From an uncultured Mollicutes bacterium (GTDB lineage: Bacteria; Bacillota_I; Bacilli_A; RF39; UBA660), in the NCBI GenBank assembly GCA_947652375.1, contig CANTCS010000004.1, positions 542-64,541 on the forward strand: 64,000 nucleotides of DNA, in the 5' to 3' direction. The position numbers and the translations under genes were made by a program. The notes beneath the pieces were generated by a model that was not told the DNA's origin, searched no databases, and was given only the letters and a program-made list of their open reading frames with translations. How positions within the stretch are numbered: position 1 is the first letter of the stretch; each line of letters opens with the position of its first letter. Below, piece after piece: positions 2,978-39,305 of the stretch.

Positions 2978-4079
2978 AGTGAGGTCAGCTTATATCCATA
3001 TCCCTTTTTGCAATAATATTTGTTCTTATTGTGATTTCTGCAAATTACTTTATAACAAGAAAATAGTGTCTAATTATTTAGAAGAACTTGCGAAGGAAAT
3101 AAGTTTAATTTATCAAGGTGAAGAATTAAAAACTATTTATATCGGTGGAGGAACTCCTAGTGCTTTGTCAGTAGAAGAATTAGAAACACTTTTTAAGATT
3201 TTAACTAGACTAAACAGAAGTAAAGAATTAGAGTATACTATCGAAGGTAATTTTGAAAGTACTACTAAAGAGAAATTATTACTTTACAAAAAATATGGTA
3301 TAAACCGTCTTAGTTTTGGACTTGAATCAATTAGTAATAAAAATCTTCAGTTTTTAGAAAGAACAGTTATTAAACAACAAGTAGAGGAAGTTATCAAGAA
3401 AGCTAGAGAATTAGGTTTTAATAATATTAATATTGATTTAATGTATGCTCTTCCTACAGAGACAGAAAATGACTTAAATATAGATCTAGATTATATTTTA
3501 TTTCTTAATGTCGAGCATATTTCAACTTATTCTTTAATTATTGAACCTCATACAAAATTAAGTATAAAATCAGTAAAAAATATTGATGAAGATTTGGATT
3601 TTAAAATGTATAATTTAATTTGTGAAAAACTTAAACTGAATAATTATTTTCATTATGAAATTAGTAATTTTTCTAAGAATGGTTTTCAGTCAAAACATAA
3701 TTTATGTTATTGGAATAATCAAGAATATTATGGTTTTGGTTTAGGTGCTAGTAGCTATTTAAATAATTGTCGAATTAATAATACAAAATCAATTAATAAA
3801 TATTTAGAGGGTAATTTTTTTCTGAATAAAGATTTTTTGTCTGAGGAAGATAAAATAGAATATGAAATTATGTTAAATCTAAGAAAAAATGAAGGAATTA
3901 ATTTAGAAAAATTTCGTGAAAAATTTGGTAGAGAATTAAATAGTATTTATAATTATTATAGTTTATTAAAAGATGGTTTTTTAATAGAGAAAGATAATTA
4001 TCTTTTCATTCCTGAAGAAAAATGGTATATTAGTAATGAGATAATTATTAGAATTATAGAAGGTGAAGTAGATGGATAG
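2961..4079 (+). CDS. hemW: Radical SAM heme chaperone HemW (HemN-like, oxygen-independent coproporphyrinogen oxidase family)
   Basis: IHIPFCNNICSYCDF CxxxCxxC motif. Conserved lepA-hemN/W synteny of Firmicutes. Confidence 0.9.
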   Translation: MLKKDKVRSAYIHIPFCNNICSYCDFCKLLYNKKIVSNYLEELAKEISLIYQGEELKTIYIGGGTPSALSVEELETLFKILTRLNRSKELEYTIEGNFESTTKEKLLLYKKYGINRLSFGLESISNKNLQFLERTVIKQQVEEVIKKARELGFNNINIDLMYALPTETENDLNIDLDYILFLNVEHISTYSLIIEPHTKLSIKSVKNIDEDLDFKMYNLICEKLKLNNYFHYEISNFSKNGFQSKHNLCYWNNQEYYGFGLGASSYLNNCRINNTKSINKYLEGNFFLNKDFLSEEDKIEYEIMLNLRKNEGINLEKFREKFGRELNSIYNYYSLLKDGFLIEKDNYLFIPEEKWYISNEIIIRIIEGEVDG

Positions 4080-4653
4080 AGAAAAATTAATAGAATGTGA
4101 ACTTGGTTATTTGAAGATAGATAAAGTAAAAAATGCTTGTTTAGAAGTTATTAAATTATTGCCAGATTATTTTTTTGTAGTACCAGCATCATCAACTGGA
4201 AAATATCATCCTGATTATGCTTTAGGAGATGGTGGACTTTTAAGACATTCTAAGGCTGCTATTCGTATTGGGTATGAATTACTTAGTGATCCAGCTATTG
4301 GTGATAAATATACAGAATTAGAAAAGGATTTAATGTTGATGGCTTTATTAATTCATGATGGATTAAAAAGTGGTTTAGAAAAAGAAAAGTATACAAGATT
4401 TGATCATCCGCTTTTAATGGCAGATTTTTTAATGGATAATGAGGAAGTTTTAGGATTAGAGGTAGAAGAAATTGAATTTTTAGGAGATGTTATAAAAACA
4501 CATATGGGTCCTTGGACAAAAGATTATAGTGGAAATGATGTTTTAGAAAAACCAAAAACAAAATATCAAAATTTTGTACATATGTGTGACTTTTTAGCAA
4601 GTAGAAAGTGTATTTTAGTTCCATTTGATGATAAAAACAATATAAGTGTTTAA
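4072..4653 (+). CDS. HD-domain phosphohydrolase
   Basis: H...HD signature (LLIHDGLKSG) with further His/Asp residues. Start overlaps the hemW stop. Confidence 0.7.
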   Translation: MDREKLIECELGYLKIDKVKNACLEVIKLLPDYFFVVPASSTGKYHPDYALGDGGLLRHSKAAIRIGYELLSDPAIGDKYTELEKDLMLMALLIHDGLKSGLEKEKYTRFDHPLLMADFLMDNEEVLGLEVEEIEFLGDVIKTHMGPWTKDYSGNDVLEKPKTKYQNFVHMCDFLASRKCILVPFDDKNNISV

Positions 4654-4738
4654 TTTGACACTTTTTTTATTTTTGCTTGTTTTATTATGATGTATTTGGT
4701 AATATAAAGGAAGGATAAGTTTTATAGGAGGGATAAAT

Positions 4739-5407
4739 GTGGCAGGAAAAATTATTGTAGTTGAGGGGACTGATTGCTCTGGAAAAGAGACACAAACTAA
4801 ATTACTTGTAAAAAAACTTCAGGAAAAAGGTAAGAAATGTATTCGATTTGATTTTCCTAATTATAAATCTCCTACAGGTAAAATAGTAGGTGAAGCATAT
4901 TTAGGGAAACCTGAAATTAGTGAAAGTTTTTTTAAAGAAGGAGCAGTTAATGTTGATCCGTATGTAGTTTCTCTTTATTATGCTGCTGATAGAAAGTATA
5001 ATTTACCAGAAATAGAGAAATATTTAGATGAAGATTATTATGTGATTTTAGATAGATATACTACATCGAATCTTGCACATCAAGGAAGTAAAATTCATGA
5101 AAAAGAAGAACGTTTTAATATGTACCAATGGATAGATAAATTAGAATTTTGGTTATTAAAATTACCTAAACCTGATAAAACAATTTTTCTTCATGTTCCA
5201 TATGAATATACTTTAGAACTTAGAAAAAACAGAACAGATATTGAACATGAAAAGTCCGTTGATCATTTAAAACATGCAGAAGAAGCTTACTTAGAACTTT
5301 CAGAGTTATATAATTGGAATAAAATAGAATGTATAAAAGATGGAGAACTTAGAAGTATTGAAGATATTAATGAAGAAATATTTAAAATTATTGACGATAT
5401 AGATTGA
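4739..5407 (+). CDS. tmk: Thymidylate kinase-like (dTMP kinase family)
   Basis: P-loop VEGTDCSGKETQ and LDRY motif. GTG start 7 nt after AGGAGGG. Confidence 0.8.
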   Translation: MAGKIIVVEGTDCSGKETQTKLLVKKLQEKGKKCIRFDFPNYKSPTGKIVGEAYLGKPEISESFFKEGAVNVDPYVVSLYYAADRKYNLPEIEKYLDEDYYVILDRYTTSNLAHQGSKIHEKEERFNMYQWIDKLEFWLLKLPKPDKTIFLHVPYEYTLELRKNRTDIEHEKSVDHLKHAEEAYLELSELYNWNKIECIKDGELRSIEDINEEIFKIIDDID

Positions 5408-5428
5408 CTTAACATTAAGTCTTTTTTA
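5405..5428 (+). terminator. Rho-independent terminator after tmk
   Basis: GACTTAA-cat-TTAAGTC stem followed by a T6 run. Confidence 0.7.
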
Positions 5429-5769
5429 TTATCAAAATAACTTTCATTTAACAGCTAACGAAGTAAAAAAATACATGACAAGTAGCTGAGATAGAATGAA
5501 ACTTATACTTAAAATGCATAAAAAAAAGTCAAAGTAAGTTTAAAAAATGTTCATTTAAATAAAGATTAAAATTTAGAGATTAAAAGATTATAACCTCACA
5601 AAGATAAAAATGTTCTTTTGCTAATTATTGGTGGTGCATTTATGACAAATAAAGTTTTTATTTAGCACTGTGGTGATTAAAATCGGTATTTAAGAATATT
5701 CTATTTTATACTTATACTACATATAAGATGTATTATTGTAATATAAAAGTGAAAAAAATTAATAAATCA

Positions 5770-5828
5770 AAATGCAACTACCAACTAGTTGTATTTTTAT
5801 ATCCCCCTCCCTATACATAATCGAAGAA
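5770..5828 (+). repeat. Remnant of an adhesin-family gene 3' end plus its downstream sequence (left direct repeat)
   Basis: 59 nt, near-identical to 7773-7832 (AAATGCAACTACCAACTAGTTGTATTTTT..ATCCCCCTCCCTATACATAATCGAAGAA). Degenerate similarity to the adhesin 3' coding end extends about 40 nt further upstream. Confidence 0.85.
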
Positions 5829-6046
5829 AAAATATTTTATAAGTTATTCAATGTTTCATGGTGCATACCCATATCCTGTTGACTTAAAATATATATAATT
5901 CAAACACGATTTAGCACAAAAATTAATACAATATTATTGAACTGTACCAAATGATAATCTATATAATTTGATAAAAATTACACTGGGATACTTTTTCAGA
6001 TAAGTATTCTTATTATGTTAAAACTAATGATATATTAGTGAATCTG

Positions 6047-6055
6047 TGGTATAAT
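6047..6055 (+). promoter_or_regulatory. Extended -10 promoter element for the vbhA-fic operon
   Basis: TGgTATAAT about 25-35 nt upstream of the antitoxin start. Confidence 0.5.
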
Positions 6056-6079
6056 ATATATATAAACTTGAGAAAGTGA

Positions 6080-6280
6080 GTGAATTTAATGAATAATAAA
6101 AAGCAAACTGAAAAAAAAATACAAGAAAAAATAAAAAAAGTTGATGGTGCTATGGCTCAAGAGGGAATGCCATTAACTAAAGAAATAAAACAAAAACTTT
6201 ATAATTGTATAACTGGGAAGTCAACAACTGAAATAGAACGAAATAAAGTATTAGAAAAATATAGGAGAATCTATGGATAA
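6080..6280 (+). CDS. VbhA-like Fic antitoxin (small inhibitory partner)
   Basis: 66 aa ORF overlapping the Fic start by 8 nt. AMAQEG resembles the (S/T)xxxE(G/N) inhibitory motif. The true start may be ATG 6089. Confidence 0.7.
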   Translation: MNLMNNKKQTEKKIQEKIKKVDGAMAQEGMPLTKEIKQKLYNCITGKSTTEIERNKVLEKYRRIYG

Positions 6281-6944
6281 TAAATACAAATATACTTTTG
6301 AAAAAACTGCTGATTACTGTTATAAAGATACTGATGTTTTAATAAATAAACTTAATATAACAAATGATGAAGATTTATTTAATGCCGAAAGAGAACTTGT
6401 ATCTTTAAGAACTTATGAACTAAATGAAAATCCATTAAAAGGGAATTTTGATTTTAAGTATTTAAAAGTTATTCATAAATATTTGTTTCAAGATGTTTAT
6501 AGATGGGCAGGAGATATAAGAAATTGTAATATTGCTAAACAAGATTTATTTTGCTTATCAGAACATATAGAATCATTTGGTACTGATGTATTTAATAAAG
6601 TAAAAAAAGAAAAATACTTTGTAGATTATGATAATGAAACAACATTAGATAAATTAGTGGAATTATTTGCAGATATTAATGCTTTGCACCCTTTTCGTGA
6701 GGGCAATGGCAGAAGTCAAAGAGTATTTATAGAATCACTTGCCAAAATAAATGGAATAAACTTAGATCTTACAAATGTATCTAAAATGGATATGATTGTT
6801 GCTAGTCATGAAAGTATTAATGGCGATTATAAAAAATTAAAGGATATGTTTAAAAATAATAGTCATAATTTAAGTGAAGATGAACAATCAGAATATATAA
6901 ATATTTATTGCTCTGATGAACTAAAACACTTAATAAAATATTAG
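6273..6944 (+). CDS. Fic/DOC family protein (AMP-transferase toxin type)
   Basis: Canonical Fic motif HPFREGNGRSQR, matching HxFx(D/E)GNGRxxR. Confidence 0.92.
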   Translation: MDNKYKYTFEKTADYCYKDTDVLINKLNITNDEDLFNAERELVSLRTYELNENPLKGNFDFKYLKVIHKYLFQDVYRWAGDIRNCNIAKQDLFCLSEHIESFGTDVFNKVKKEKYFVDYDNETTLDKLVELFADINALHPFREGNGRSQRVFIESLAKINGINLDLTNVSKMDMIVASHESINGDYKKLKDMFKNNSHNLSEDEQSEYINIYCSDELKHLIKY

Positions 6945-6949
6945 GAGAA

Positions 6950-7330
6950 TTGGAAATGAAATTAAAAGTGCTAGAAGATAATAATACCTTTATTGATGAA
7001 TATTATTTGGGAGAACCCGGAGTCTCTTATTATATCGAAGATGGTGTTGAAAAAATATTATTTGATACAGGATATTCTTCTGTTATATTAGAAGAAAATG
7101 CAAGTAAAATGAACATTGACTTAAACAAGATAAATAAGCTAGTAATGTCCCATGATCATGATGAACATACTGGAGGTTAAAATATTTTTTTTAGAAGAAA
7201 AGAAACATTGAATTAATTGCCCATCCAGATTGCTTTAACTATAAAGAAGATGGAACTGGCTTATATATTGGAAGTCCACTTAGTAAAGAGGAACTAAACA
7301 GATTAGCGAAGTGTAGATATACCTACTCAT
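6950..7330 (+). pseudogene. Decayed metallo-beta-lactamase-fold gene
   Basis: The N-terminal 76 aa carry LFDTGYS and SHDHDEHTGG (HxHxDH) and then hit a stop. A continuation (ELIAHPDCFNYKEDGTGLYIGSPLSKEEL) lies in another frame. The gene is cut off by the adhesin cassette. Confidence 0.75.
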
Positions 7331-7339
7331 GATTATAAG

Positions 7340-7801
7340 TTGTTTGAAGTTCATGAAAGTGATTTTTCAGGAAGTGATTCTTCTAATATAATTATCTATG
7401 CCTTACAAATAACAGGAACAAATGGAGCGGAATTTAAAATTACAGATAGCTCAGGAGTATCTAAGGGAACAATAACAATTGGAAGTGATGGAATTGGTGA
7501 ATTAAAAGGCTTAAAATCTGGAACTTATACAGTAACTCAAACAAAAGCCCCAGCTGGTTATGCATTAATAAGTGGTTCTCAAACAGTAAAAGTAGGAACT
7601 GGAGGAACACCAGTTTCAGGGAAAGATGGGTACTATAACATTACAATGAGAAATTCCATTTTAGCGATATTACCTTTTACAGGAAGTATGGGAACACTAA
7701 TCTTTACAATTATTGGAACTTTACTTATAATAAGTTCAATTGAATTAATAATAAGATATAAGAAAAAAAATAAAGAAAATAGAAATGCAACTACCAACTA
7801 G
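7340..7801 (+). pseudogene. Promoterless 3' cassette of the LPxTG adhesin family (C-terminal domain, sorting signal and anchor only)
   Basis: 7397-7610 matches 19704-19917 at 212 of 214 nt. Encodes YALQITGTNGAEFKITD...LPFTGS plus TM plus a KKK tail. Lacks the signal peptide and N-terminal 380 aa, with no promoter module. Confidence 0.85.
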
Positions 7802-7832
7802 TTGTATTTTTTTTATCCCCCTCCCTATACAT
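7773..7832 (+). repeat. Right direct repeat (adhesin 3' end plus downstream sequence)
   Basis: Near-identical to 5770-5828. Confidence 0.85.
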
Positions 7833-7862
7833 AATCGAAGAATAAAAATTTAATTTTTTTAC

Positions 7863-7893
7863 TTGACAAATAGTTGGGGGGGGGGGGTATTAT
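7863..7893 (+). promoter_or_regulatory. Sigma-A type promoter of adhesin A with a poly-G spacer
   Basis: TTGACA 7863-7868, 19-bp spacer (AATAGTT plus G12), TATTAT 7888-7893. The module is conserved at 18450-18477. Confidence 0.7.
7876..7887 (+). repeat. G12 homopolymer tract
   Basis: Counted directly from the sequence: 12 consecutive G in a very AT-rich context. Confidence 0.95.
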
Positions 7894-7925
7894 TGAAATA
7901 GATAAGATAAGGAGTGAGAAGAAAA

Positions 7926-9515
7926 ATGGATAAAAAAATAAAGTTATTTGGCTTATTATTTATGTTTATTACTATTTTCTTAACTGGCAATATAAATGTA
8001 AAAGCTGTTGATATTACAACTAATACTACAAGTTTATCAACAGATTCATCATATAAACAGGTAACTAATAAAGGGTCATTTAAAATTTATACTAATCAAA
8101 GTAGCAATGATAGAACTTATTTTGCTTTATACAAAATAGTTAATGTTTATTATAATTCTAGTCAAGATGCTTTAAAGTACCAATTTACAACTGAGTTCCA
8201 ATCATATTTAAACAGTAGTTATTGTCCTAATAAATTTAGGAACTTAACTGTCGAAACATATATGACTTTATATAATGGTGGAGCGATTCGAGATACTATT
8301 AAAGGTACAGGGGAAGTTGTAAGTGGAGGGAATCTAACAACAAATGATTATGCTGAATTAATGAGTAGTTATGCAACTTATGTAAGAGAAGAGTCTATTT
8401 CTTCTAATACAACCATTACAAATTATTATACTTATATATATTCTTATGCTTATACAAATAATGTAGAAGTAGGAACATATTTAGCTTTACCTTATGGAAG
8501 ACAAGGCAATGATAGTTCTCCTTCTGTATTTGCAGTCATGGTTGATAGTGTAAGATTAGAAAAAAATGGTTCTACTTGGGAATTAAAAGACGCTAAAATT
8601 TTATCAAAATCGAGTTATTCATATTTAACTCATTCTATAGCTAAATCATCATCAGGTGGATATAGTTATTCACAAGATGTTACCTATGAAACTGAACTTG
8701 AGGGTAAAATTTCATTTAAAGTTCCAACGTCTCCTGCTAATGGAAAATTTTCTACAATAACTATCAAAATAGATAAAGTTCGTGAAACTCAAAGTGGAAT
8801 TATAAGATTTATTACCTCAGGATTGACAGGGTATATTACAATGCAGAGTGGAGGAGAGATTCAATATAATGGCACAAAAGTTGGCATGGCCAAAGTCAAT
8901 GCCACTACCAAGGAGCTTGAAATCGATTTTGATGGTGAATTACTCCCAAATGAAGTAGAATTTGTATATTATGCTGAGCCATTAACTTCAACTAATAGTG
9001 TAATGGGAGCTAATACTAGAAATGCATCAATAACATTTGACGATCCTTATACTTCATTTGATGTAGGCTATAAAACATCGGGTAGTAAAATTGTAACATT
9101 ATATACATATGCCTTACAAATAACAGGAATAAACGGGGCGGAATTTAAAGTTACAGATAGTTCAGGAATCTCTAAGGGAACAGTAACAATTGGAAGTAAT
9201 GGTATCGGTGAACTAAAAGGATTAGCAAGCGGAACCTATACAGTAACTCAAACAAAAGCCCCAGTTGGTTATGCATTGTTAAGTGGATCTCAAACAGTAA
9301 AAGTAGGAACTGGAGGAACACAAGTCTCAGGGAAAACAGGTTATTATAATATTACAATGAGAAATTCCATTTTAGCGATGTTACCATTTACAGGAAGTAA
9401 AGGAACAATTATATTTTCAATTATAGGAAGTTTACTAATTATAGCTTCAATAATATTTTTAATAAGATATAAAAAGAAGAAAAATAAAGTAAATCAAAAT
9501 GCAACTACTAACTAG
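7926..9515 (+). CDS. LPxTG-anchored surface protein, adhesin/pilin-like, paralogue A
   Basis: Signal peptide. C-terminal Cna-B/SpaA-like domain (YALQITG..GTYTVTQTKAPVGYAL). LPFTGS sortase motif, TM segment and KKKK tail. AAGGAG lies 12 nt before ATG 7926 (the ORF track starts at GTG 7914). Confidence 0.85.
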   Translation: MDKKIKLFGLLFMFITIFLTGNINVKAVDITTNTTSLSTDSSYKQVTNKGSFKIYTNQSSNDRTYFALYKIVNVYYNSSQDALKYQFTTEFQSYLNSSYCPNKFRNLTVETYMTLYNGGAIRDTIKGTGEVVSGGNLTTNDYAELMSSYATYVREESISSNTTITNYYTYIYSYAYTNNVEVGTYLALPYGRQGNDSSPSVFAVMVDSVRLEKNGSTWELKDAKILSKSSYSYLTHSIAKSSSGGYSYSQDVTYETELEGKISFKVPTSPANGKFSTITIKIDKVRETQSGIIRFITSGLTGYITMQSGGEIQYNGTKVGMAKVNATTKELEIDFDGELLPNEVEFVYYAEPLTSTNSVMGANTRNASITFDDPYTSFDVGYKTSGSKIVTLYTYALQITGINGAEFKVTDSSGISKGTVTIGSNGIGELKGLASGTYTVTQTKAPVGYALLSGSQTVKVGTGGTQVSGKTGYYNITMRNSILAMLPFTGSKGTIIFSIIGSLLIIASIIFLIRYKKKKNKVNQNATTN

Positions 9516-9632
9516 TTGTATTTTTTATATTTCACTAAAAAAAATAAATAGATATCAAGAATTTAAAAAATCTATAAATCTATCTAAACAATACCTTATC
9601 ACGATCAATTTTTTTATGTTAATAAATTATAA

Positions 9633-9659
9633 TAAAAAAAACTTCCATTTATCTTGGAA
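9633..9659 (-). terminator. Terminator of the ATPase gene (possibly bidirectional)
   Basis: CTTCCA-tttatct-TGGAAG stem flanked by an A8 run on the + strand, which is a T8 run on the - strand. Confidence 0.6.
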
Positions 9660-9735
9660 GATTTCTTATTTATCTATTTACAGTTTCAAACCAGATTAGG
9701 ACATAAATTAACTTAAATATTCTCAAATAAATATT

Positions 9736-11508
9736 CTATAAACGAGGTAAATCATTAGTTGTTTTTTCTAAATTAGTTTGAGGTTGTTCTGTTTCTAATC
9801 TTTTTGTGATAGGTATATTTGGAGGAACAGTCTCTTGTACTATTGAAGTGTTTGGAATTGGAGAGCTAGTGATACTTGGAATTGTTGAGTTTTGCATATT
9901 AGCAAATGACGGAATATTAACAAGTGTATTTTTCAATGGATTTGTTTCTAAAGTAATTCCTTGTTGTAAATTAGGAATAATATTTGTAGAAGGTAATTTA
10001 TCTACCTTTTCCATTATTAAATTTTTATTCTGCTTATTTAAATCAAGCACTTGACTATTATTGCTATTAGTTATAGCACTATCTTGTTTCTTTTTTGAAT
10101 CATCAAAATCAGCTGCTGTAAATATTGGTGGTGTATTAACTATTGAACCATCATTAGTTGTTTTAATTGAATCATCTAGTAAATCATCACTTTCTTCATC
10201 AACTTCATCTTTTGGAATAGTTTCTTTTACAGTTGTTTGAACTTCATTTTCATAATTATCATCATCTTCATTCTCAATTTCAATGTTTTTGTAAACCTCC
10301 TCAAAAGAAGTTTTTCCCTCTAAACACTTTATTAATGCATCTTGTAGCATTGTAATAGTATTACCAGAATAAACCATTTTTGCTAAATCTTTTTTCTCTA
10401 CATTCTCATTACTTAAGGCACTTCTTATATTATCGTCTAATTCCAAAACTTCATGAATTGCAATACGTCCACGATAACCATGTCGACAACGTTCACATCC
10501 TTTAGGATTAGCATCCCAAATATTTAAAACATCCTTATTCATATATTTTTTAAAAACTTTTCTTTCGTATTGTGTTGTTTTTCTTTGATAGCGACAAGTA
10601 GGACACAACATTTTAGCTAATCTTTGCGATATTATTCCTGATAAAGCCGTTGATAATAAATATCTTTCAACATCCATATCTAAGAGACGTTCAACTGTTG
10701 CTAAGGCATTGTTAGTATGGATAGTAGATAATACTAAGTGTCCTGTTATAGATGCACGAACGGCAATTTGAGCAGTTTCTGAGTCACGAATTTCTCCAAT
10801 TAAAATAATATTTGGATCTTGTCTTAGAATAGATCTTAAAGCAGCAGCAAAAGTCATTCCAATTTCTGTGTTAACTTGAACTTGATTTATACCCTCAATA
10901 TTCATTTCTATAGGGTCCTCAACTGTAATAATATTTGTCTCGGGTTTATTTAATCCTTGTAAAATAGAATAAGTAGTAGTAGATTTACCAGAACCAGTCG
11001 CTCCAGTAGTTAAAATAATCCCATTAGGGATTCCCATCATTCTTTTTATTTTCTCTAAATTTTTTGGATGAAATCCTAAAGAATCAATACCTTGTAAACT
11101 TCTAGTATAATCTAAAATACGAATAACAATTTTTTCTCCCTCATTTAAAGGCAATGCAGAAACACGCATATCTAAATAAGTACCACCATAATCTCCTTTA
11201 ATTGCTCCATCTTGGGGAAGACGTGATTCCGTAATATTCATATTCGAAAGTAATTTTATTCTTGTAACTAAATTTTTTTCATAAGCTTTTGGAACAAAAG
11301 TATAATCTTGTAAATCACCATCTATTCTAAATCTTACCATCATACCATCTTCTCTTGGGTCAAAATGAATATCGGAAGAATTGTGTTTTGATGCTGCTAC
11401 AATTATATAGTCTACTACTTGAGTAACAGGAGTCTTAGTAAAATCAAAAGACACCATGAAACTTTCGGTTCCTTGTTGAACACGTTTTACATCAAACTGG
11501 ACCATCAT
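9736..11508 (-). CDS. GspE/PilB/ComGA-family type IV pilus or competence assembly ATPase with a long low-complexity C-terminal tail
   Basis: Walker A GATGSGKST, Walker B ILIGEIRD, His box GHLVLSTIHT. Tetracysteine CPTC...CERC. The last ~180 aa are acidic and S/N/P/T-rich low complexity. Confidence 0.9.
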   Translation of the reverse strand: MMVQFDVKRVQQGTESFMVSFDFTKTPVTQVVDYIIVAASKHNSSDIHFDPREDGMMVRFRIDGDLQDYTFVPKAYEKNLVTRIKLLSNMNITESRLPQDGAIKGDYGGTYLDMRVSALPLNEGEKIVIRILDYTRSLQGIDSLGFHPKNLEKIKRMMGIPNGIILTTGATGSGKSTTTYSILQGLNKPETNIITVEDPIEMNIEGINQVQVNTEIGMTFAAALRSILRQDPNIILIGEIRDSETAQIAVRASITGHLVLSTIHTNNALATVERLLDMDVERYLLSTALSGIISQRLAKMLCPTCRYQRKTTQYERKVFKKYMNKDVLNIWDANPKGCERCRHGYRGRIAIHEVLELDDNIRSALSNENVEKKDLAKMVYSGNTITMLQDALIKCLEGKTSFEEVYKNIEIENEDDDNYENEVQTTVKETIPKDEVDEESDDLLDDSIKTTNDGSIVNTPPIFTAADFDDSKKKQDSAITNSNNSQVLDLNKQNKNLIMEKVDKLPSTNIIPNLQQGITLETNPLKNTLVNIPSFANMQNSTIPSITSSPIPNTSIVQETVPPNIPITKRLETEQPQTNLEKTTNDLPRL

Positions 11509-18449: not shown

Positions 18450-18477
18450 TTGACAAATACTTGGGGGGGGGTATTAT
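18450..18477 (+). promoter_or_regulatory. Sigma-A type promoter of adhesin B with a poly-G spacer
   Basis: TTGACA 18450-18455, 16-bp spacer (AATACTT plus G9), TATTAT 18472-18477. The leader is identical to that of adhesin A. Confidence 0.7.
18463..18471 (+). repeat. G9 homopolymer tract
   Basis: Counted directly from the sequence. Confidence 0.95.
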
Positions 18478-18509: not shown

Positions 18510-20111
18510 ATGGAGAGAAAATTAAAAATAGTTAGTTGTTTAGTTTTTTTCTTGTTTTTATTAATTAATTGTCCACTAAATGTAGAAGCAATAAATATTA
18601 CAACAAATAATGAAACTTATTCAGGTGATTCTTCATATAAAAAAGTAACAAATCATGGAAATTTTAAAATTTATACTAATACAAATAGTCATGATACAAC
18701 AAATTTTAGACTATATAAAATAGTAAATATATATTATAATTCTGTTAGAGATGAAATTAAGTATGGCTTTACAACTAATTTCCAAACATTCTTAAATAGT
18801 AGTGATTGTCCAAGTACTTTTAGAGCAATGACTATTGAAATATTTATGTCTTTAAATAAAGGAACCGCTATACGAGATCAATTAGATGGAAATAATTATG
18901 TAGTAAGTGGAGGAAATTTAACATCAAATGATTTTGCAAGACTAATGAGTGCATATGCAGGTTATGTAAGAGAGCACACAATTAGTACTGATGGATATCT
19001 TTCAATGTATTCTCTTTCGACATCTGGTCGACCATATAAAATGTCAGATTATGTTGAAGCGGGGACACATTTAGCTTTGCCAGATGATAGCATAGGAGCT
19101 GATTATGGAGTATCAGTCTTTGGAGTTATGGTAGATAGTGTAAGACTAGAAAAGAATGGCTCTACTTGGGAATTGAAAGATGCTGAAATTTTAGCTAAAA
19201 CAACTACTACATCTTTATCACATCAAATAGCTGCTAACTATCAAGGACCATTTAATTTGTCAGCAGACGTGGGCTATGGAGGTAGTCCAGAAGGTAAAAT
19301 TTTATTTGCAATCCCAACATATCCAGCCAATAGTTTAGTCCCTCCAATGATAACGGTAACAATTGATAAAGTTCGAAATGAAAGTGGTTGGCTTACTTTT
19401 GTTACTTCTGGATTTTCAATATCTGATATGTCATCAACTGGAGGAACAATTAAATATAATAATCAAACTGTTGGAACAGCTGTTAGAAATAGTAGTACAG
19501 GACAAGTTAAAGTAAAGTTTACAAGTATAAGTCTTATTCCTAAAACAATAGAATTTAAATATCATGCTGAGTCTCTAAACTCAATTAATAGTGTAATGGG
19601 AGCTAACAAAAGAAATGCGAAATTAGAGTTTAGTGATCCTTATACATCTTCTGAAACAGTAGCAATAAATACAGCAGAGAGTAGAGATGCAATATTTTAT
19701 ACATATGCCTTACAAATAACAGGAACAAATGGAGCGGTATTTAAAATTACAGATAGCTCAGGAGTATCTAAGGGAACAATAACAATTGGAAGTGATGGAA
19801 TTGGTGAATTAAAAGGCTTAAAATCTGGAACTTATACAGTAACTCAAACAAAAGCCCCAGCTGGTTATGCATTAATAAGTGATTCTCAAACAGTAAAAGT
19901 AGGAACTGGAGGAACACAAGTATCAGGAAAAACAGGATATTATAATATTACAATGAGAAATAGTATTCTTTTAGTCCTTCCATTTACTGGAAGTAAAGGA
20001 ACAATTATATTTTCAATTATAGGAAGTTTACTAATTATAGTTTCAATAATATTTTTAATAAAATATAAAAAGAAGAAAAATAAAGTAAATCAAAATACAA
20101 CTACTAACTAG
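18510..20111 (+). CDS. LPxTG-anchored surface protein, adhesin/pilin-like, paralogue B
   Basis: Same architecture as 7926-9515. The 3' ~130 nt are near-identical to paralogue A. LPFTGS motif. ATG 18510 follows AAGGAG (the ORF track starts at GTG 18498). Confidence 0.85.
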   Translation: MERKLKIVSCLVFFLFLLINCPLNVEAINITTNNETYSGDSSYKKVTNHGNFKIYTNTNSHDTTNFRLYKIVNIYYNSVRDEIKYGFTTNFQTFLNSSDCPSTFRAMTIEIFMSLNKGTAIRDQLDGNNYVVSGGNLTSNDFARLMSAYAGYVREHTISTDGYLSMYSLSTSGRPYKMSDYVEAGTHLALPDDSIGADYGVSVFGVMVDSVRLEKNGSTWELKDAEILAKTTTTSLSHQIAANYQGPFNLSADVGYGGSPEGKILFAIPTYPANSLVPPMITVTIDKVRNESGWLTFVTSGFSISDMSSTGGTIKYNNQTVGTAVRNSSTGQVKVKFTSISLIPKTIEFKYHAESLNSINSVMGANKRNAKLEFSDPYTSSETVAINTAESRDAIFYTYALQITGTNGAVFKITDSSGVSKGTITIGSDGIGELKGLKSGTYTVTQTKAPAGYALISDSQTVKVGTGGTQVSGKTGYYNITMRNSILLVLPFTGSKGTIIFSIIGSLLIIVSIIFLIKYKKKKNKVNQNTTTN

Positions 20112-20163
20112 TTGTATTTTGATTTTATTATTATCTAACTAAAATATTATTAAAATTTTTGCT

Positions 20164-21225: not shown

Positions 21226-21419
21226 GAAACTAAGTTTTTTTATTTGCCTATAATTTTAATTTACTTATATATCATTTGAAGTCATCTCACTAGATTTTAG
21301 ATTTCTTTGTTTAATTCTCACAAAAATAAAGTATCAATTTTATAAATAAATAACTAAAATTAATAAATTTTGATTAATGTAAAAAAACTTAATTAATTTT
21401 TAATTTTTAAAAAAAACTT

Positions 21420-21467
21420 AAAAAAGTGTTGACATTTTAAAATGTTATTAATATAATGTTAATAACA
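21420..21467 (+). promoter_or_regulatory. Promoter (TTGACA-17-TATAAT) overlapped by a 23-bp near-palindrome: candidate NAD-regulon operator, copy 1
   Basis: TTGACA 21429-21434, TATAAT 21452-21457, palindrome GTTATTAATATAATGTTAATAAC 21444-21466. 45 of 48 nt identical to 29046-29093. Confidence 0.75.
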
Positions 21468-21538
21468 AGCGGGAAAACTTGTTAAAAAATTTAACTATAG
21501 TTATTAACAAAATATTAAAAAGAAGGGTGATGTTGAAA

Positions 21539-21946
21539 ATGGAATTAAATTTTACAAAAGAACAAATGATTTTAATACTAAAAGAATATTATAAAAATCA
21601 TTTTGATATTGAAGGAGAAATTGAAATAAAAGCTTATTCTTCTCAAGTTGGGTATGAAATGTATCCATCACTAGCTACAGTAGTAGAAATGAAGATAGTA
21701 GGTGATATGGATATTAATAATATGAAAACTAAAATAGAACAAAAAATTACAACCGATGATTTAGAAAATGCTTTTAGTTATATATTAAGTAGTAAAAATA
21801 TTGATGTCGAAAGTGTTAAACTTGACAAAGGTATAACATCTATAAGTATTGGTTATGGTTTAGGTGAAAAGAATGTAGAAACTGCTTACTTTAAAGGAGT
21901 GAAAGTTATTACGAAAAATAATAATAAAAATTTAGGAGGAATGTAA
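21539..21946 (+). CDS. Hypothetical protein, first gene of the pncA-pncB operon
   Basis: 135 aa from ATG 21539, 11 nt after AGAAGGG. No recognisable motif. The ORF track start 21479 runs back to just downstream of the operator (21444-21466), within the predicted leader. Confidence 0.6.
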   Translation: MELNFTKEQMILILKEYYKNHFDIEGEIEIKAYSSQVGYEMYPSLATVVEMKIVGDMDINNMKTKIEQKITTDDLENAFSYILSSKNIDVESVKLDKGITSISIGYGLGEKNVETAYFKGVKVITKNNNKNLGGM

Positions 21947-28396: not shown

Positions 28397-28542
28397 TTCT
28401 TTTTTTTATAAAAAAATCTACAAATTATTAAATTTTGATTAAATTATTATTATATGTAAGTCTTATATTTATTTAATTTTGAATAATTTGCGTTTAAAGA
28501 AAATACTTGCTAATATTCTATTAATAATGTTATAATGAATAT

Positions 28543-28655
28543 GTCAAGGAAACTTGCATAAAATAAAAAAGGAATACCTAGTTTTGAAGAGTTAGGTACT
28601 ATTCCAAAAAATAAATGTTCAAGTACCGACTTTAAACAGTTGATACTATTTTTAT
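28543..28655 (+). ncRNA. Predicted antisense RNA (type I antitoxin candidate), copy 1
   Basis: TTGCTA-18-TATAAT (28507-28536). The conserved 5' segment GAATATGTCAAGGAAACTTGCATAAAATAAAAAAGGA is shared with copy 2. Terminator AGTACCGACT/AGTTGATACT plus a U-run at 28622-28655, overlapping the 3' end of the toxin ORF. Confidence 0.4.
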
Positions 28656-28724: not shown

Positions 28725-29045
28725 AATTTTCACCTCCTTTCACTTTTTAAAGTAAAGGAGAATAGTACCTAAACTAACTAAATATTCCTGAATTAATTAT
28801 ACCGAACATTTGTTTTTAATACAATAGCTTTATTATAGTTTGATAAATTATTGTAGAGTAGTAAAATTAATTTAAAACTATAATGAGGTATAGAAGAAAT
28901 ATATGATATCAAAATTTTTTTATATAAGGAATTATAACAATATTTATAAGAAATATTTTTAAAACTAGTTTATTTTTTATGGGACTTAACTTTAAGATTA
29001 TATAAATATTTTAGGTGTTTTGAAAGTTTTTATTTGGAAATATAT

Positions 29046-29093
29046 AAAAAAGTGTTGACATTTTATTATGTTATTAATATAATATTAATAACA
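29046..29093 (+). promoter_or_regulatory. Promoter (TTGACA-17-TATAAT) overlapped by a perfect 23-bp palindrome: candidate NAD-regulon operator, copy 2
   Basis: TTGACA 29055-29060, TATAAT 29078-29083, palindrome GTTATTAATATAATATTAATAAC 29070-29092. Confidence 0.75.
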
Positions 29094-29224
29094 CGACTGA
29101 TATTTTTTTTAAAATCAGATATTAACAAAATATTAATAAGAAGAATATTGTTAGTAATTAAATTGGTAAAATTGAAAGTTATAAATAAAAGTAAAAGAAA
29201 TAAAAAAGAGAGGATTATATTTTT

Positions 29225-39118: not shown

Positions 39119-39189
39119 TTATGTAAACATGTCAGTAACAATAGAAAACGCACTTGATAATGATGTGTATTTTATGTTATTATGAATAT

Positions 39190-39305
39190 GTCAAGGAAAC
39201 TTGCATAAAATAAAAAAAGGAAATACTTAACTTTGGCTAGTTGAGTACTTACCTAAATATTTAGATTTGTACTTAATCTTTTGCTAGATTGAGTACTATT
39301 TTTTT
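39190..39305 (+). ncRNA. Predicted antisense RNA (type I antitoxin candidate), copy 2
   Basis: TTGATA-18-TATTAT (39154-39183). Conserved 5' segment shared with copy 1. 10-bp terminator stem 39269-39278/39287-39296 plus a T7 run, overlapping the toxin stop codon. Confidence 0.45.

Follow-up and report, generated by a model that had tools for sequence, protein, structure and literature searches.

A truncated, probably deletion-derived backbone-pilin-like gene with mosaic ancestry in an uncultured member of the Bacilli

In Neisseria pilE/pilS, the MgPa repeats of Mycoplasma genitalium and Borrelia vlsE, numerous silent copies hold the variable regions, flanked by short conserved anchors; sequence moves in one direction only, and different strains retain the same arrangement. 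In the babA/babB/babC genes of Helicobacter pylori and the opa genes of Neisseria, gene conversion takes place among outer-surface paralogues with conserved ends. The literature searched contained no description of silent-copy variation of sortase pilins. Sortase-dependent pili of Bifidobacterium breve are controlled by switches that act through slippage of G tracts (PMC9187656).

We analyzed a 64-kb stretch of DNA (the window) from the metagenome-assembled genome (MAG) of an uncultured Bacilli bacterium, centering on a 5′-truncated gene fragment at 7307-7801 (the cassette). An earlier note had described it as a promoterless 3′ fragment of mosaic ancestry, shaped by gene conversion, and as a possible silent donor driving antigenic variation of a C-terminal domain; the description stood up to our analysis, whereas the donor role was not supported. 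With a probability of roughly three in four, the cassette is what a deletion left of a pilin-like paralogue, recently gene-converted with intact family members, the switching of the family residing mainly elsewhere.

The locus resembles pilE/pilS in that a promoterless, 5′-truncated partial pilin copy lies near expressed copies and has recently exchanged a tract with one of them. Unlike pilE/pilS, it offers one usable copy, which holds a conserved domain and a cleaved sorting signal, was apparently born by a deletion fusing two pseudogenes and has no counterpart in relatives. With babA/babB/babC and opa it shares full-length paralogues at separate loci, conserved 5′ leaders and 3′ ends as anchors, divergent middles, and mosaic blocks attributable to non-reciprocal recombination, with putative simple-repeat phase variation on top. 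It differs from them in belonging to a Gram-positive-type, sortase-anchored pilin-like family of uncultured gut Bacilli, in having as its repeat a poly-G tract placed inside the promoter spacer, and in that one participant is a truncated pseudogene. The B. breve case (PMC9187656) likewise concerns pilus genes that depend on sortase, in a gut commensal, with a homopolymeric G tract of varying length; the tract there is intragenic and acts by frameshift, whereas here it lies between the -35 and -10 hexamers, and the comparison concerns the family rather than the cassette itself.

A backbone-pilin-like family and its truncated member

The window holds two intact paralogues, A and B (Table 1), both of which gave Pfam matches to SpaA and Gram_pos_anchor and display the architecture of pilins, with a signal peptide, tandem Ig-like/CnaB domains and a C-terminal LPXTG sorting signal. 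Paralogue A was modeled by AlphaFold2 from an alignment of 19 family sequences (mean pLDDT 87, pTM 0.76), and Foldseek comparison of the model with the PDB revealed three-domain backbone pilins matching along its full length (E 1e-21 to 1e-12). The top matches were the sortase-assembled pilins CppA of C. perfringens (5xcc), T6 of S. pyogenes (4p0d), PilA (8wxd) and PilB of S. sanguinis, BcpA of B. cereus (3kpt), and SpaD (4hss) and SpaA (3htl) of C. diphtheriae. Judged by this model, the family members look like LPXTG-anchored proteins resembling three-domain backbone pilins, with which they have in common the signal peptide, three beta-sandwich domains, a C-terminal SpaA/CnaB-type domain, an LPXTG-type signal (LPFTG), a hydrophobic segment and a charged tail; the word adhesin, used for them before, is imprecise in view of these fold matches. 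Unlike known backbone pilins, to which the sequence identity of A is only 11-17%, A and B are monocistronic, each with its own putatively phase-variable promoter, and no sortase or accessory pilin adjoins either gene among the ORFs scanned at 4-22 kb. The gene for the related protein P0008 shares its operon with those for a sortase and two more SpaA-domain proteins.

The cassette is a pseudogene: of a third paralogue (C) in this sortase-anchored backbone-pilin-like family, it retains just the quarter at the 3′ end. It encodes 29 linker codons, a C-terminal SpaA/CnaB-type domain (PF17802, SpaA prealbumin/CnaB-type, E 8e-12), LPFTG, a hydrophobic segment, a charged tail and a stop codon; the LPXTG anchor match in Pfam was weak. 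The same SpaA domain and LPXTG anchor terminate A and B. ORF listing and translation placed an upstream TAG at 7304-7306 and the terminal stop codon at 7799-7801. The public annotation records a 153-aa ORF (P0053; TTG at 7340), but the frame is already open from 7307. No promoter, ribosome-binding site, signal peptide or N-terminal domain was found 5′ of the cassette, in keeping with the earlier note; the promoter scan itself returned 30 matches near the cassette against 29.1 by chance and is uninformative in DNA so A+T-rich. In tblastn searches with family proteins, the cassette, A and B were the only family copies in the 64 kb, and a third N-terminal part was absent from the whole window.

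The remnant's frame of 164 codons is still intact in DNA of about 27% G+C. A random frame of this length would hardly ever be open at such composition, so the remnant is young, refreshed by conversion or selected; selection may act on the open frame. A terminator-like hairpin overlapping the stop codon is kept in all four copies, namely the cassette, A, B and an upstream remnant, and was missed by the terminator scan because its stem is too A+T-rich.

Table 1. Coordinates of the features discussed, given as positions in the window
Feature	Position	Strand	Basis or remarks
Second, older 3′ remnant of a family gene, frame broken	5689..5840	+	Repeat comparison
Metallo-beta-lactamase-fold hydrolase pseudogene, 3′ half lost	6956..7323	+	Pfam Lactamase_B; six-frame translation
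Deletion junction (putative)	7306..7325		tblastn of P0054, P0056 and P0008 against 6900-7450
Cassette: 5′-truncated remnant of paralogue C, LPXTG backbone-pilin-like gene	7307..7801	+	Pfam; tblastn
Recent gene-conversion tract common to cassette and B (19704-19917)	7397..7610	+	212/214 nt
Tail of cassette, unlike B	7611..7801	+	Protein nearly identical to P0003 (another contig)
Terminator-like hairpin (inferred), CAACTA-CCAAC-TAGTTG then T run	7788..7814	+	Read directly; stem A+T-rich
Putative promoter of A: TTGACA, 19-nt spacer with G12 (7876-7887), TATTAT	7863..7893	+	
Intact paralogue A, 529 aa, P0001	7926..9515	+	AlphaFold2 model; backbone-pilin fold matches
Putative promoter of B: TTGACA, 16-nt spacer with G9 (18463-18471), TATTAT	18450..18477	+	
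Intact paralogue B, 533 aa, P0002	18510..20111	+	Tract partner (19704-19917); tail common with A

At its 5′ end the cassette abuts a second truncated gene. Homology to metallo-beta-lactamase-fold proteins (tblastn with P0054 and P0056) ends at about 7323, around residue 123 of about 268, and pilin homology begins at 7310, in another frame, at residue 378 of the 536 of P0008, leaving zero spacer between the stumps; at the junction, SVDIPTHDYKLFEVHESDFSGSDSSNIIIYALQ of the window aligned with SVSNRYHDCDIFKSDESDLTGSARVSIYVYALQ of P0008. Full-length homologues of the hydrolase measure 264-270 aa, and the pseudogene is further broken by a frameshift or stop at 7178-7204, separating a frame at 6956-7177 from a second one that runs from 7204. 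Two stumps in contact point to a deletion or an illegitimate join, as does the finding that a truncated gene touches an unrelated truncated gene with its missing part nowhere nearby in the 64 kb. The linker of the cassette resembles that of P0008 and shows the fragment to derive from a separate third paralogue, not from a duplicated A or B. We also weighed, and dismissed, a simple insertion of the Fic/metallo-beta-lactamase-fold segment into gene C, since no third 5′ part of the family lies upstream.

The older remnant, 2 kb upstream of the cassette, consists of about 100 nt of the family 3′ end plus a shared 50-nt downstream flank and is 87% identical to 7752-7854. Between it and the cassette lie the metallo-beta-lactamase-fold stump and, at 6080-6944, a gene for a Fic/DOC-family protein (223 aa, VbhT/Fic-like) preceded by an overlapping ORF of 63-66 aa; the two ORFs, 100% conserved in two other samples, are probably a toxin-antitoxin pair. 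The locus looks like a decaying tandem array, and the bracketing of the Fic pair and the stump by two remnants may reflect either the collapse of such an array or the scar of a recombinational insertion.

Two further features of the window were recorded. Immediately downstream of A, on the opposite strand (9736-11508, minus), lies a gene for a T2SSE-family (type II/IV secretion) ATPase, so the organism may also possess a type IV pilus or competence apparatus. Two pairs of intergenic repeats, 74-85% identical (21412-21546 with 29038-29164; 28505-28570 with 39152-39217), contain strong TTGACA...TATAAT promoters and are unrelated to the pilin family.

Mosaic blocks and their recurrence in independent assemblies

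Recomputing the pairwise comparisons reproduced the near-identity of the cassette to B over the tract that had been reported (Table 1), with mismatches at 7431 and 7575 enclosing an exact core of 143 nt (7432-7574); informative sites restrict the tract to at least 7419-7576. Paralogue A is indeed more diverged there, with 23 differences (A 9108-9321). The A-like character claimed for 7646-7668 was borne out, this segment being identical to A 9357-9379 and differing from B at 9 of 23 positions. For the tails of A and B, the three differences were recovered in 132 nt, but the register had been one base off and should read 9393-9524 = 19989-20120. The N-terminal halves of A and B are loosely similar, as stated before, the proteins being 60% identical overall and 30-70% in their N-terminal parts.

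A three-way alignment of the cassette (C), A and B over 7397-7801 yielded 68 informative triplet sites, which fall into four blocks. In the first (7397-7610), C agrees with B at 23 sites and with A at 2; in the second (7611-7654), A agrees with B at 6 sites against 1; in the third (7655-7688), C agrees with A at 12 sites against 1; and in the fourth (7689-7801), A agrees with B at 21 sites against 2. The site patterns form 16 runs, and the minimum among 100,000 label permutations was 28. Within the tail, 7640-7668 is identical to A, and 12 sites at which the cassette equals A and B differs lie in 7655-7681. By the Nei-Gojobori method, the cassette and B show no synonymous differences at 54 sites in block 1, where the cassette and A differ by 0.22, and beyond block 1 the synonymous difference between the cassette and B rises to 0.55. 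Selective constraint was therefore rejected as the source of the identity blocks, and the absence of synonymous differences in the tract indicates a recent exchange instead. With blocks conflicting beyond chance and a tract identical down to its synonymous sites, no reasonable account of the block structure is left other than gene conversion within the family, in agreement with the earlier attribution of the patchwork to non-reciprocal recombination.

Both differences between the cassette and B inside the tract are specific to B and non-synonymous (E to V and G to D), and the cassette carries the family consensus at each, which is compatible with either the cassette or a full-length ancestor as donor. 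A Chi-like AGCGG at 7426, on the left edge of the tract (B 19733), was set aside, since a 5-mer found 11 times in the window carries no weight.

The mosaicism spans the whole family, N-termini included. Two putative further paralogues from the same public sources but other contigs, P0003 and P0004, were compared as proteins; exact-protein look-ups with A, B, P0003, P0004 and the cassette ORF returned no contigs. B and P0003 are 96% identical over residues 1-45 and about 60% thereafter; B and P0004 are 86-93% identical in alignment columns 241-315; and A and B are 90-96% identical over their final 75 residues. The cassette protein is B-like from YALQ to VGTGGT and, from VSGKDGYY onward, nearly P0003-like. 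P0010 and P0014, from a relative that is better sampled, have identical N-terminal halves and different C-terminal halves. Mosaics across full-length genes suggest that recombination among such genes is the general process, in which the remnant merely participates.

Exact look-up of the Fic protein, and of a variant of A from its 90% cluster, retrieved three contigs from two other samples. L007 matches window 3249-7426 at 100%, L008 covers 5552-7623 with 2 mismatches, neither in the cassette, and L002 corresponds to 7642-10340 at 99.7%. The window comes from a metagenome assembly, and these contigs end within the cassette (at 7426, and between 7623 and 7642), where repeats trouble assemblers; the mosaic might thus have arisen from B reads threaded through the cassette locus by a short-read assembler, or from a collapsed metagenome repeat. 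This is extremely unlikely, for in L008, the product of another sample and another assembler, unique upstream DNA continues across all of the shared tract to the cassette-specific 7611-7623, with identity to the window there, and the mismatches to B at 7431 and 7575 recur. Moreover, unique flanks to the left and right of the cassette both join the shared core in any assembly, so that the block would be real even if the flanks had been swapped. Contig breaks inside the cassette are to be expected at repeats, and the structure is nonetheless reproduced. No variation was seen inside the cassette among the three near-identical assemblies, a sample that says little. The sole coding difference in A between two samples is at 9445 (L002 1804), C to T, changing Ala to Val; it brings A to the state of B at the homologous site and could be a micro-conversion or a coincidence.

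Poly-G promoter spacers and other putative repeat switches

Poly-G tracts separate the -35 and -10 hexamers of the putative promoters of both intact paralogues (Table 1), an arrangement that, read from the sequence, looks like promoter-spacer phase variation by slippage. The G12 of A also occurs in the independent contig L002, relatives carry G8 (L001, 53-100) and G14 (L004, 1650-1700), and G4 and G5 distinguish strains (L009 versus L010/L011/L015). A would probably be off, and B either on or weak. The third tandem paralogue of a related species has a poly-A tract where its signal peptide is encoded: two samples carry A8, and the 518-aa protein is intact, and two others carry A7, with a frameshift and a 445-aa gene call (L009 9723-9760, L010, L011 5717-5760, L015); this tract is a predicted second, intragenic repeat switch within the pilin-like family.

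About 55 nt upstream of the poly-G at 7876-7887 lies a complementary C-rich motif, CCCCCTCCC (7817-7825), and the pair encloses the -35 element. The motif is also present at 5803-5811, and equivalent pairs were found in L004 (1613-1624/1676-1689) and L009 (9618-9630/9675-9688). The pairing is retained in relatives despite sequence change (CCCACAA/TTGTGGG in L009), its folding z-scores being modest, at -1.6 to -2.8. The motif could serve as an insulator or a terminator, or could affect slippage.

These elements bear on whether the remnant has a function of its own, which we regard as very unlikely. It might be expressed as the 153-aa protein by read-through from the Fic operon, and the scan indeed found no convincing terminator from the Fic gene to the cassette; alternatively, its terminator and the C-rich element might insulate or regulate the promoter of A, and hairpin and motif are conserved after the cassette and even in the decayed upstream remnant. 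The putative protein, however, has neither a ribosome-binding site nor a signal peptide, without which an LPXTG protein cannot reach the sortase, and regulation would account for the retention of 7788-7862 only, not of the coding part.

The remnant as donor or bystander

As a dedicated silent donor, the cassette would be a promoterless 3′ copy kept as a reservoir and copied unidirectionally into expressed pilin genes in the manner of pilE/pilS. It shares a recent tract with the expressed gene B, its reading frame is still open, and it has consensus residues where B has two derived non-synonymous changes; the family, moreover, is evidently pressed to vary, as judged by the poly-G promoters, the poly-A frameshift switch in a relative and the pervasive mosaicism. 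We consider this role unlikely all the same, first because of what the cassette contains. The domain that it carries is the most conserved in the family, with an amino-acid identity of 80-86% to its counterparts in A and B, and the 96 residues that would belong to the mature protein show 6 differences relative to B and 11 relative to A. One third of the cassette is sorting signal. Sortase removes everything after LPFT. The near-identical tail of A and B, consisting of cleaved sorting signal and terminator hairpin, would hence never be exposed, and a cassette of the most conserved domain plus a cleaved signal has little exposed diversity to donate. The divergent linker (7310-7396) has no homology anchor on its 5′ side and so cannot be moved by two-sided conversion.

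The genomic setting argues in the same direction. The cassette is fused directly to another pseudogene, as a deletion predicts, and the upstream remnant has been left to decay; the cassette is a promoterless partial copy such as pilE/pilS-type loci contain, the only other one here having decayed, but it lacks variable exposed regions between two anchors. The tract in common with B fits no one direction of transfer in particular, and the cassette is invariant in the three near-identical assemblies. Relatives have tandem arrays of 2-3 full-length genes, and at least four related organisms contributed 11 further loci in which each C-terminal domain of the family is accompanied by an N-terminal part, with no orphan C-terminal copy and no conserved silent-copy array (contigs L001, L003-L006 and L009-L016 were checked for domain pairing). 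Protein searches agree: a C-terminal profile run against 5.8 billion proteins gave the cassette's own ORF as the only close short match, and a search with the cassette protein returned only the cassette itself. A genome-collection scan found a single distant relative (L001, 35% identity, from a mouse-gut MAG), and JGI metagenome scans gave no match. Conserved content, fusion to a pseudogene and the absence of orphan cassettes in relatives thus speak against the silent-donor inference of the earlier note. That the remnant, perhaps together with further partial copies elsewhere in the genome, is a working, pilS-like reservoir for phase-variable genes of a sortase pilus shaft in a Gram-positive-type gut commensal, operating alongside poly-G switching, appears quite improbable.

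The favored reading, a deletion remnant converted with its intact relatives, can be put as a sequence of events. A deletion or other illegitimate join would have removed the promoter, the signal peptide and the first ~375 codons of C, and the same event would have taken the 3′ half of the adjacent metallo-beta-lactamase-fold gene, fusing the two stumps. Because the stump keeps stretches that are 80-100% identical to the intact paralogues, it would then have joined the RecA-type recombination that homogenizes and shuffles the family, recently exchanging with B, in either direction, a tract of 158-214 nt; further tracts would tie it to A and to P0003. The conserved 3′ ends (last pilin domain, LPFTG and terminator) are probably alike through function as well as conversion, the functional constraints presumably being recognition by a shared sortase, joining of subunits and termination of transcription.

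Antigenic switching would then follow two routes, one turning divergent full-length paralogues on and off through the promoter-spacer poly-G tracts and the other exchanging sequence among full-length genes by conversion, and both account for the switching more plausibly than a cassette donor does. The remnant would be a bystander, at most an occasional minor donor. Against so passive a part, the two successive 3′ remnants upstream of the putatively phase-variable A do resemble the layout of a silent-copy locus.

If expressed genes did draw sequence from the remnant, we would know of no earlier silent-copy variation system for Gram-positive pili. By itself, the cassette is an ordinary outcome of genome decay and gene conversion. 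The family is of more interest, in that several divergent backbone-pilin-like genes, reshuffled by recombination, coexist in an uncultured gut bacterium of low G+C content belonging to the Bacilli. An apparent poly-G promoter switch for each gene, together with this reshuffling, suggests that the sortase pili of a commensal undergo surface variation driven by the host.
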